Shown here: positions 54,083 to 54,538 of the stretch, piece by piece
Position numbering within the stretch: the first letter of the stretch is position 1
Layout of the letters: the number at the start of each line of letters is the position of its first letter
IMG/VR virus record: IMGVR_UViG_3300029789_000001
Length of the DNA stretch: 64,000 nucleotides
Reading direction: 5' to 3' (one strand)
Source: a virus
Notes under the pieces: model-generated
What the model saw: only the letters and a program-made list of their open reading frames with translations
Told to the model about the DNA's origin: nothing
Database searches by the model: none
Made by a program: the position numbers and the translations under genes

Positions 54083-54538
54083 CTAATCTATTTTTTTAGT
54101 AGAACCTCCTCTAATAGGAATATTATGCGCTTTTAATATTTTAGAAACTGTATCATCACAGCATCCTACTTTTTTAGCTACTTGTTTTTGAGAATATCCC
54201 ATATTATATAGTTCAATAATTTCTTTATAATCATAAAGAACTTTACCGTCACCTCCTTTAGAAGCATTATATCCAGTATGTCCCCATGTATTCAATTCTT
54301 TAATCCAGTACTTTTCTCTATTAGATAATATCGTAGGATCATCTATCTATTCTAATTCCTCTATTTTAAAGTTTTCAACTCCATATTTATTCATTGCATC
54401 ATATAAAGGTCTTTTATTACATCTTTCTTTTCTAGAATCTCTACAATGTTCTTTAAATTTTTCTTCTATAGTATTTGTAGTTTTTCCTACATACTATTTT
54501 CCATTAATTAGATTTGTAATACAATAAACATACCCCAT
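54083..54538 (-). pseudogene. GIY-YIG homing-endonuclease gene (I-TevI-like) with a C-terminal HTH, carrying 2 in-frame TAG codons
   Basis: MGYVYCITNLINGK(TAG)YVGKTTNTIEEKFKEHCRDS...YDAMNKYGVENFKIEELE(TAG)IDDPTILSNREKYWIKELNTWGHTGYN...VAKKVGCCDDTVSKILK(TAA). The track lists only the last 70 aa. Confidence 0.65.

Follow-up and report, generated by a model that had tools for sequence, protein, structure and literature searches.

The DNA analysed here is a 64,000-nucleotide (nt) stretch of the IMG/VR viral record IMGVR_UViG_3300029789_000001 (the whole of this stretch is referred to as the window), which has a GC content of 30% and carries nearly all of its genes on the minus strand. Its tRNA array contains an open reading frame (ORF) for a GIY-YIG homing endonuclease, situated between a tRNA gene and a tRNA-like gene and punctuated by three in-frame TAG codons. 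The ORF lies within an insert of 737 bp that adjoins the 3′ end of a tRNA-Leu(UAA) gene. From that end onward, the insert consists of a predicted theta ribozyme (a minimal ribozyme of the hepatitis delta virus (HDV)-like type), a leader of 32 nt, the ORF itself, and 15 nt that are the fossil of a tRNA-Leu 3′ end. The elements of the locus are listed below in the 5′ to 3′ direction of the minus strand.

54626..54709, minus strand: tRNA-Leu(UAA), with no encoded CCA (ARAGORN; Rfam tRNA model, 53.8 bits)
53889..54625, minus strand: the insert, 737 bp, replaced by 12 nt in MT835539.1 (L001)
54571..54625, minus strand: minimal HDV-like (theta) ribozyme motif, 55 nt (Rfam RF02682 and elements read by hand)
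54539..54570, minus strand: AT-rich leader, 32 nt, from the ribozyme to the start codon (read from the sequence)
53906..54538, minus strand: GIY-YIG homing-endonuclease ORF, 210 codons and a TAA stop
54494..54496, minus strand: in-frame TAG, codon 15, most likely read as Gln
54458..54460, minus strand: AAA codon, encoding Lys27 where I-TevI has its catalytic Arg27
54347..54349, minus strand: in-frame TAG, codon 64, most likely read as Gln
54083..54085, minus strand: in-frame TAG, codon 152, most likely read as Gln (family column: Gln in 27 sequences, TAG in 4)
53891..53905, minus strand: fossil tRNA-Leu 3′ end, GTTCCGTCTAAGCTA, 15 nt, directly after the stop codon and running from T-loop position ~59 to the discriminator

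The endonuclease gene occupies a single frame that runs from an ATG at 54538 to a TAA at 53906..53908, and its only interruptions are the three TAGs; from base composition, the probability of 210 codons without a TAA or TGA is 4e-7. An initial annotation of this DNA had assigned the gene to 54083-54538, counted two TAGs at sense positions, and listed a second, helix-turn-helix (HTH)-like small ORF at 53906..54076. Both of these TAGs are present and, on the evidence given below, stand at sense positions, but the real count is three: the end of the interval first flagged, 54083..54085, is itself an in-frame TAG, and the frame runs on into the small ORF. The boundary was thus misplaced, the true gene being 53906..54538, and the supposed second ORF is the C-terminal DNA-binding domain of the same protein in the same frame.

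Assignment of the gene to the GIY-YIG homing endonucleases, as originally proposed, was borne out by domain and structure matches. Pfam PF01541 (GIY-YIG) matched residues 1-88 (E 6.6e-12), and the PDB matches are to the I-TevI catalytic domain only (E 3.5e-8, aligned over residues 4-93). HTH_28 and related Pfam models fell on residues 105-137 with scores at or just under their cut-offs. A C-terminal block (residues 150-207) is also conserved, and NUMOD1 (PF07453) is present in one family member. The resulting layout is a GIY-YIG domain (1-93), an HTH (105-137), and a NUMOD-like C-terminal domain (~150-207). Hundreds of full-length homologues of 210-212 amino acids (aa) are found in the protein database, and those from cultured phages, with 30-35% identity over residues 3-206, are annotated as SegB-like (“putative SegB homing endonuclease”) or as homing endonucleases. 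T4 SegB, to which the initial annotation had pointed, is indeed the right comparison. Like SegB, the encoded protein joins a GIY-YIG catalytic domain to C-terminal DNA-binding modules, and its gene is free-standing among phage tRNA genes and absent in close relatives; unlike SegB, to which it is only distantly similar, the gene contains TAG sense codons, specifies Lys at the catalytic Arg, and is flanked by a self-cleaving ribozyme motif upstream and a duplicated tRNA 3′ end downstream. The likeness to I-TevI (PDB 1MK0, 1LN0) extends over the catalytic domain (residues 4-93), in which the equivalents of Y6, Y17, H31, E75, and N90 are conserved; in contrast to I-TevI, the gene lies outside any intron, has another DNA-binding tail, and replaces R27 with K. 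It is not intron-encoded in the I-TevI sense: Rfam gave no intron match, and the empty site is a clean intergenic junction.

Several comparisons bear on the meaning of the TAGs. The closest copies of the gene, in L085 and L086 (93-95% aa identity), have TAG at the identical three codons. Against these copies, the ratio of nonsynonymous to synonymous substitution rates (dN/dS) takes values of 0.07-0.12 over the whole gene and of 0.07-0.08 in the stretch downstream of all three TAGs (codons 153-210). GenBank and IMG/VR loci yielded 70 family genes, of which 37 contain one to six in-frame TAGs in full-length frames that lack TAA and TGA and mostly terminate with TAA. The 88 TAGs are spread over 42 alignment columns, at positions that vary freely between homologues, and Gln is 4-fold enriched in those columns. 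Column-wise log-odds for the meaning of TAG gave +93.5 bits for Gln and negative values for all other residues, the next best being Lys at -24. Because the protein database itself translates TAG as Q, the “Q” of database homologues was dropped as evidence for this meaning, and DNA-level codons were used instead. By these comparisons, TAG serves as a sense codon in the endonuclease gene and is most likely read as Gln.

The TAGs are not a peculiarity of this gene; the lineage is recoded. The closest relative, MT835539.1, is 92-95% identical to the window over the overlap, and beyond the window it contains ORFs of 2072 codons with 64 TAGs and of 725 codons with 46 TAGs. Both the endonuclease family and the late genes of MT835539.1 thus show the pattern expected of genetic code 15, with in-frame TAG in conserved genes and frames closed by TAA or TGA. 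A suppressor gene (tRNA-Gln-like, anticodon CTA) of MT835539.1 is located at 4376..5451 of L155, in which window position 64000 corresponds to 3234; the gene therefore lies ~1.1 kb past the right end of the window. An uninterrupted CTA-anticodon tRNA is found in contig IMGVR_UViG_3300045988_070932 (L182), whose sequence around tRNA-Leu is 97% identical to that of the window. In addition, nearly all large contigs that carry this endonuclease family proved to hold an amber suppressor of the tRNA-Gln-like type in a pattern search. The TAG pattern agrees with published descriptions of code-15 phages, and recoding of this kind is itself already a known type; TAG = Gln, a TAG-free replication module, a TAG-rich late module, and, judging from relatives, a phage-encoded suppressor tRNA are all shared with the code-15 gut phages of Borges et al. 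(bioRxiv 10.1101/2021.08.26.457843).

We place a probability of roughly 0.8 on the resulting reading, in which 53906..54538 is one free-standing homing endonuclease of the SegB/I-TevI type, with its three TAGs specifying Gln, inside a 737-bp insert at the tRNA-Leu(UAA) 3′ end, and in which the phage would belong to a lineage of human-gut phages (~100-190 kb) whose late genes use TAG for Gln by means of a tRNA-Gln-derived amber suppressor.

The suppressor tRNAs have features of their own. In L155, an insertion of ~990 nt with U↓...G↓ boundaries separates anticodon positions 35 and 36 of the suppressor, and within it lies an HNH ORF free of TAG (Pfam HNH, E 1e-5). The insertion resembles a group I intron; an Rfam search of the split suppressor gave no match, and the resemblance lies solely in the boundaries. 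In L182, the suppressor tRNA is followed by a theta ribozyme whose P1 is the same as that of the tRNA-Leu ribozyme. Within the window, the ARAGORN call “tRNA-Stop(tta)” at 56442..56526 was not accepted as a suppressor, as the anticodon stem placed by Rfam encloses a loop of 20 nt and the lineage uses TAA as its main true stop.

On its tRNA side, the insert is bounded exactly by the discriminator base of tRNA-Leu(UAA), so that the discriminator A (54626) directly adjoins G1 of the ribozyme (54625). Two 7-bp helices of the ribozyme were read by hand: P1 (GAAUAGC/GCUAUUU), which has a G1·U wobble, and P2 (AUGAGAA/UUCUCAU), a pseudoknot. They are accompanied by a 3-bp P3 (ACC/GGU), by L3 (UCCACGU), by a P1.1 deduced from CC and GG bases, and by a GGGUAAC-GCUAA segment that aligns to the RF02682 consensus GCUAA and holds the putative catalytic C (J4/2). 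P2 covaries: 69 unique relatives display 50 distinct P2 strands, and a 6-7 bp complement is in place in 63 of the 69, compared with a mean of 3.8 in shuffles. These elements form a predicted fold of the theta type adjoining tRNA-Leu. The spacing provided by the leader is comparable (25-35 nt) in 25 other cassettes, and a scan of the cassette found no terminator-like site between the tRNA and the ORF.

The theta ribozymes of Kienbeck et al. (2024; PMC10879173) are minimal HDV-like ribozymes whose G1 adjoins the 3′ end of phage tRNAs. They occur chiefly in recoded gut phages, tRNA-Leu being one of their most frequent partners, and were described as devices for tRNA maturation whose origin is unknown. 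The motif in the window shares with them the placement of G1 at a tRNA 3′ end, P1, P2, and P3, a minimal P4, a TAG-recoded gut phage as its setting, and a tRNA that lacks an encoded CCA. It differs in that it constitutes the 5′ end of a mobile endonuclease insert, and endonucleases and homing are nowhere mentioned in that study (PMC10879173). A degenerate theta-like motif is also present at ~62690..62770 on the minus strand (P1 CCTATA/TATAGG, P3 ACC/GGT, L3 TCAACGT, P2 AAGCAT/GTGCTT); it lacks the GG required for P1.1 and lies upstream of a small non-endonuclease ORF.

At the other end of the insert, the fossil GTTCCGTCTAAGCTA matches the tRNA-Leu allele end of L086, L087, and L117 at 13 of 15 bases, unlike the window's own tRNA-Leu, which ends in GTCCCAGAAGGGGTA; in L085, the arrangement of tRNA-Leu end and fossil is reciprocal. 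A fossil that matches a foreign tRNA-Leu allele, together with the reciprocal case, means that the cassette moved between phages with different tRNA-Leu alleles, and these sequence comparisons identify the window's cassette as an import from such a phage. For allelic moves, the same observations led us to reject the notion that the duplicated tRNA end is a target-site duplication made anew at each insertion. Six other distinct cassettes have an exact 12-16 nt repeat of the upstream tRNA end after the endonuclease stop, and the repeats span T-loop position ~58 (58-60) to the discriminator. The insertion polymorphism that the initial annotation had suggested looking for in the tRNA region does exist, as the cassette is absent from MT835539.1 and the endonuclease gene is absent from L142 and L117; universal disruption of the locus, which had been named as the outcome that would overturn the proposal, was not seen in these relatives. 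In L018 (5982..6640), a single chimeric endonuclease gene combines the N-terminal half of a tRNA-Cys-linked gene with the C-terminal half of a tRNA-Met-linked gene, the tRNA-Met between them being deleted. The copy of the window-type gene in L087 (252..917) is frameshifted and, in its N-terminal part, 95% identical.

The placement at tRNA 3′ ends is general. Family members sit directly 3′ of a tRNA gene in almost every locus, behind at least 10 tRNA isotypes, and the order of tRNA, ribozyme, ~30 nt, and ATG was found again in at least 10 distinct cassettes. In an independent scan of IMG/VR for the ribozyme core, 25 of 65 usable sites were followed by this endonuclease family. In loci chosen solely for the endonuclease gene, a ribozyme is present at 3 of 18 unique tRNA-to-endonuclease junctions; of the remaining 277 tRNAs in these loci, 3 have one (odds ratio 18, p 0.003). 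Joint gain or loss of ribozyme and endonuclease gene is also seen after tRNA-Met, where L007 and L006/L008 form a second presence/absence pair. With a ribozyme at only 3 of the 18 junctions, we rejected the idea that it is an obligatory part of the family's cassettes. Ribozyme-only alleles at the window's own locus (L142, L117), along with a polymorphic solo ribozyme behind the suppressor tRNA (present in L182, not in L155 or L162), likewise indicate that the link between ribozyme and endonuclease is frequent and non-random, not obligatory. Our literature search found no paper linking HDV-like or theta ribozymes to GIY-YIG or other homing endonucleases; a ribozyme-led cassette with a fossil tRNA end has apparently not been described previously.

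The distribution of TAG within the window also sets the endonuclease genes apart. None of the 67 non-endonuclease standard-code ORFs of at least 100 aa (13,077 codons) has an interior TAG, and seven of the 67 terminate in TAG; in contrast, the 911 codons of four endonuclease genes, the GIY-YIG gene included, contain 11 interior TAGs (Fisher p 8e-14). TAG accounts for 41% of Gln-type codons in these four genes, versus 59% in the late genes of MT835539.1. The other endonuclease genes of the window are the following.

13736..14728, minus strand: LAGLIDADG gene with 4 in-frame TAGs
31717..32355, minus strand: HNH-like gene with 2 in-frame TAGs, recognised by motif only
36528..36998, minus strand: HNH gene with 2 in-frame TAGs; its N-terminal part lies upstream in another frame (36528..37240 overall), which suggests a frameshift
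4522..5475: HNH_3 gene, TAG-free
11283..12377: LAGLIDADG_3 gene, TAG-free

Together with a TAG-free intein in NrdD, the load of six endonuclease genes and an intein that had been noted for these 64 kb was reproduced, five of the genes being recognised by Pfam and one by motif only. In the seven genes that terminate in TAG (e.g., 19425..20195 and 48193..48570), a TAA or TGA follows after 0, 1, 2, 3, 3, 10, and 16 codons, compared with an expected median of ~10; these second stops could be back-up stops for the recoded phase.

From these observations, a working model can be proposed. The cassette would have neither its own terminator nor an evident promoter and would be transcribed together with tRNA-Leu, upstream of which a conserved 36-nt element is located. 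Both its fold and the published assays of theta ribozymes suggest that the ribozyme would then cut at its G1, forming the tRNA 3′ end and freeing the endonuclease mRNA. Full-length enzyme would be made only once the suppressor is active, making the enzyme a late-code product despite its location in a TAG-free module. The recognition site of SegB contains GGTTCRANTCC of the TΨC arm (PMC2330249), and the constant junction of the cassettes at T-loop position ~58 and the many tRNA isotypes that family members follow would fit a SegB-like specificity. The enzyme may accordingly recognise the TΨC region of tRNA genes in cassette-free phages, with predicted cuts in or beside GGTTCGAGTCC; repair of the break by gene conversion would then copy the cassette in, although the R27K copy in the window may itself have lost cleavage.

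More broadly, we tentatively propose, at somewhat less than even odds, that a tRNA-targeting GIY-YIG sublineage moves as a composite cassette of theta ribozyme, ORF, and duplicated tRNA 3′ end that enters tRNA genes at the T loop. The ribozyme would supply a new route for cutting the tRNA 3′ end and so limit harm, as self-splicing introns do for intron-encoded endonucleases; homing would be a main vehicle by which theta ribozymes spread in gut-phage tRNA arrays; and, because of its TAGs, the nuclease would be confined to the late, recoded phase. The R2 retrotransposon offers a parallel, being a mobile element that occupies a stable-RNA gene, shares its transcript, and is released from it by an HDV-like ribozyme at its own 5′ end. 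This 5′ ribozyme of R2 is mentioned in PMC11331408. The likeness is one of analogy only, as R2 is a eukaryotic, RNA-mediated retroelement of rDNA, whereas the window would contain a DNA-level homing cassette in phage tRNA genes.

A number of observations weigh against parts of this interpretation, beginning with those on the gene itself. No tRNA with a CTA anticodon was found inside the 64-kb window, and the suppressor is thus deduced from relatives. Three in-frame stops in the standard code, Lys in place of the catalytic Arg27, a frameshifted copy in L087, and the well-known tendency of homing-endonuclease genes to decay once fixed would all suit a decaying pseudogene in which the TAGs are nonsense mutations. 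We regard that explanation as ruled out for practical purposes and assign it a very small residual probability: every interruption is TAG, though TAA is about twice as likely by composition; the window gene has no frameshift; the TAGs are kept in its closest copies, with purifying dN/dS downstream of every one of them; TAGs across the family, at 42 different columns, fit Gln; and TAG abounds in the late genes of the lineage. A more serious matter is the activity of this copy. The motifs GIY...YVGKT...R...H...E and YWIKELN...GYN had been described as intact apart from the TAGs; they are present, but the catalytic Arg is replaced by Lys. Residue 27 is Arg in 41 of 43 unique family members, including the L085 and L086 homologues, Ile in one, and Lys in the window alone. 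Because K27 aligns with R27 of I-TevI, for which an R27A mutant structure of the catalytic domain exists (PDB 1LN0), the window copy may be inactive and its DNA cleavage possibly lost. The frame would then have been kept in a catalytically dead protein, whether a recently inactivated passenger or a DNA-binding protein with another role. We consider this plausible but the less probable state of affairs, given that Lys preserves the positive charge and that all remaining catalytic positions are intact (Y5, Y16, H31, E75, N91); H31, E75, and N91 are invariant across the 43 sequences, the window's included, and Y5, Y16, and G18 are conserved. Moreover, K27 reflects a single G-to-A difference, which could be a recent polymorphism or an assembly variant.

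Doubts about the cassette as a unit start with the ribozyme. RF02682, the model of the Faecalibacterium prausnitzii HDV-like ribozyme, scores it at 23.3 bits, under the gathering score of 44, although this model expects a full P4 and leaves P2 unscored; and a promoter and terminator scan of the cassette, the promoter part of which covered sigma-70 sites only, was uninformative. The ribozyme might instead be a resident tRNA-processing element and not cassette cargo, with both elements favouring tRNA 3′ ends and the two brought together by co-conversion or by landing of the endonuclease gene just downstream. No endonuclease gene lies downstream of about 60% of the ribozyme cores, which are solo and often placed between tRNAs; 15 of the 18 unique tRNA-to-endonuclease junctions are without a ribozyme; and the ribozyme-only alleles of L142 and L117, the solo ribozyme of L182 that is absent in L155 and L162, and the tRNA-maturation role assigned in PMC10879173 all speak for residence. 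With a tRNA-end fossil near none of 43 solo ribozymes, it was also necessary to reject the proposal that every solo theta ribozyme marks a site from which an endonuclease cassette has been lost. Residence does not readily account for the joint gain or loss of ribozyme and endonuclease gene in both presence/absence pairs, for the occurrence of the same ribozyme and ORF behind three different tRNA 3′ ends (the window, L085, and L086/L087), or for a 15- to 18-fold enrichment over independence; in L117, moreover, the ribozyme is followed by a decayed tRNA-end copy, which suggests loss of the endonuclease gene and not an ancestral solo state. On balance, a resident ribozyme is a minority possibility, if one to be taken seriously. 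The late timing of endonuclease production is something we infer. Borges et al. (bioRxiv 10.1101/2021.08.26.457843) proposed that recoding delays endonuclease production and reported that in Agate phages an intron endonuclease, which lies in an early gene and is expected to be made only late, is recoded with significant preference. That case is TGA-recoded and group-I-intron-encoded, whereas the window has TAG-recoded, free-standing endonuclease genes of three or four families. There is nearly an even chance that the TAGs have no role in timing and reflect either CAG-to-TAG drift tolerated in genes unneeded early or import from other recoded phages. The TAG share of Gln-type codons in the endonuclease genes is near that of late genes, TAG columns vary freely among homologues, and TAG-free items (the HNH_3 gene, the LAGLIDADG_3 gene, and the NrdD intein) occur in the same window. 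The confinement of interior TAGs to mobile endonuclease genes within a TAG-free module of 13,000 codons is striking, and the preferential recoding in Agate points the same way, but neither is proof of function.

Other oddities were noted in the tRNA region. A 36-nt direct repeat (97% identical; hairpin GCAACTA/TAGTTGC) occurs at 54716..54751, where it stops 6 nt upstream of tRNA-Leu, and at 57122..57157, at the same distance from tRNA-Arg; it could serve as a promoter or processing signal for the tRNA transcripts. Two paralogous tRNA genes on the minus strand (56443..56526 and 56957..57037; Rfam 53 and 47 bits) have anticodon stems around 20- and 18-nt loops. Removal of 13 or 11 nt at position 37/38 would leave Lys-UUU and Glu-UUC loops, and ARAGORN calls both “Stop(tta)”. 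L142 also has the gene at 56443..56526, which is 100% identical in MT835539.1. A further tRNA-like gene, for which the call is Val(gac) and which bears a 14-nt insertion, is found in L142, L117, and L087; short anticodon-loop insertions look recurrent in the lineage. The tRNA-Phe(GAA) homologue at 56265..56334 (minus strand) has an anticodon arm 3 nt shorter than in the relative, and the tRNA-like gene at 53637..53701 (minus strand) has a 6-nt anticodon loop and shows a compensatory A-T to G-C stem change between the window and L001. Finally, a non-coding element of ~160 nt (55545..55713, minus strand) begins 8 nt after tRNA-Gln and is 94-96% identical to sequences in Lak megaphages and 87% identical to sequences in crAss-like phages, with unrelated flanks; the Lak-C1 copy likewise follows a tRNA-like sequence. 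A hidden suppressor tRNA or ribozyme in this element was considered and set aside, as Rfam gave no match and the z-score of its fold was -0.2.

For annotation, the consequence is immediate: the standard code fragments the endonuclease gene, TAG = Gln yields a complete enzyme, and the same applies to three other endonuclease genes of the window. In an otherwise standard-compatible module, only selfish endonuclease genes use the late-phase codon, which extends the published idea of recoding as a means of delaying nucleases. Theta ribozymes stand repeatedly at the leading edge of mobile endonuclease inserts, which suggests a route by which they may pass between tRNA genes and between phages. The arrangement further suggests a ribozyme-based way in which a mobile gene may occupy a tRNA gene without blocking the processing of its 3′ end.

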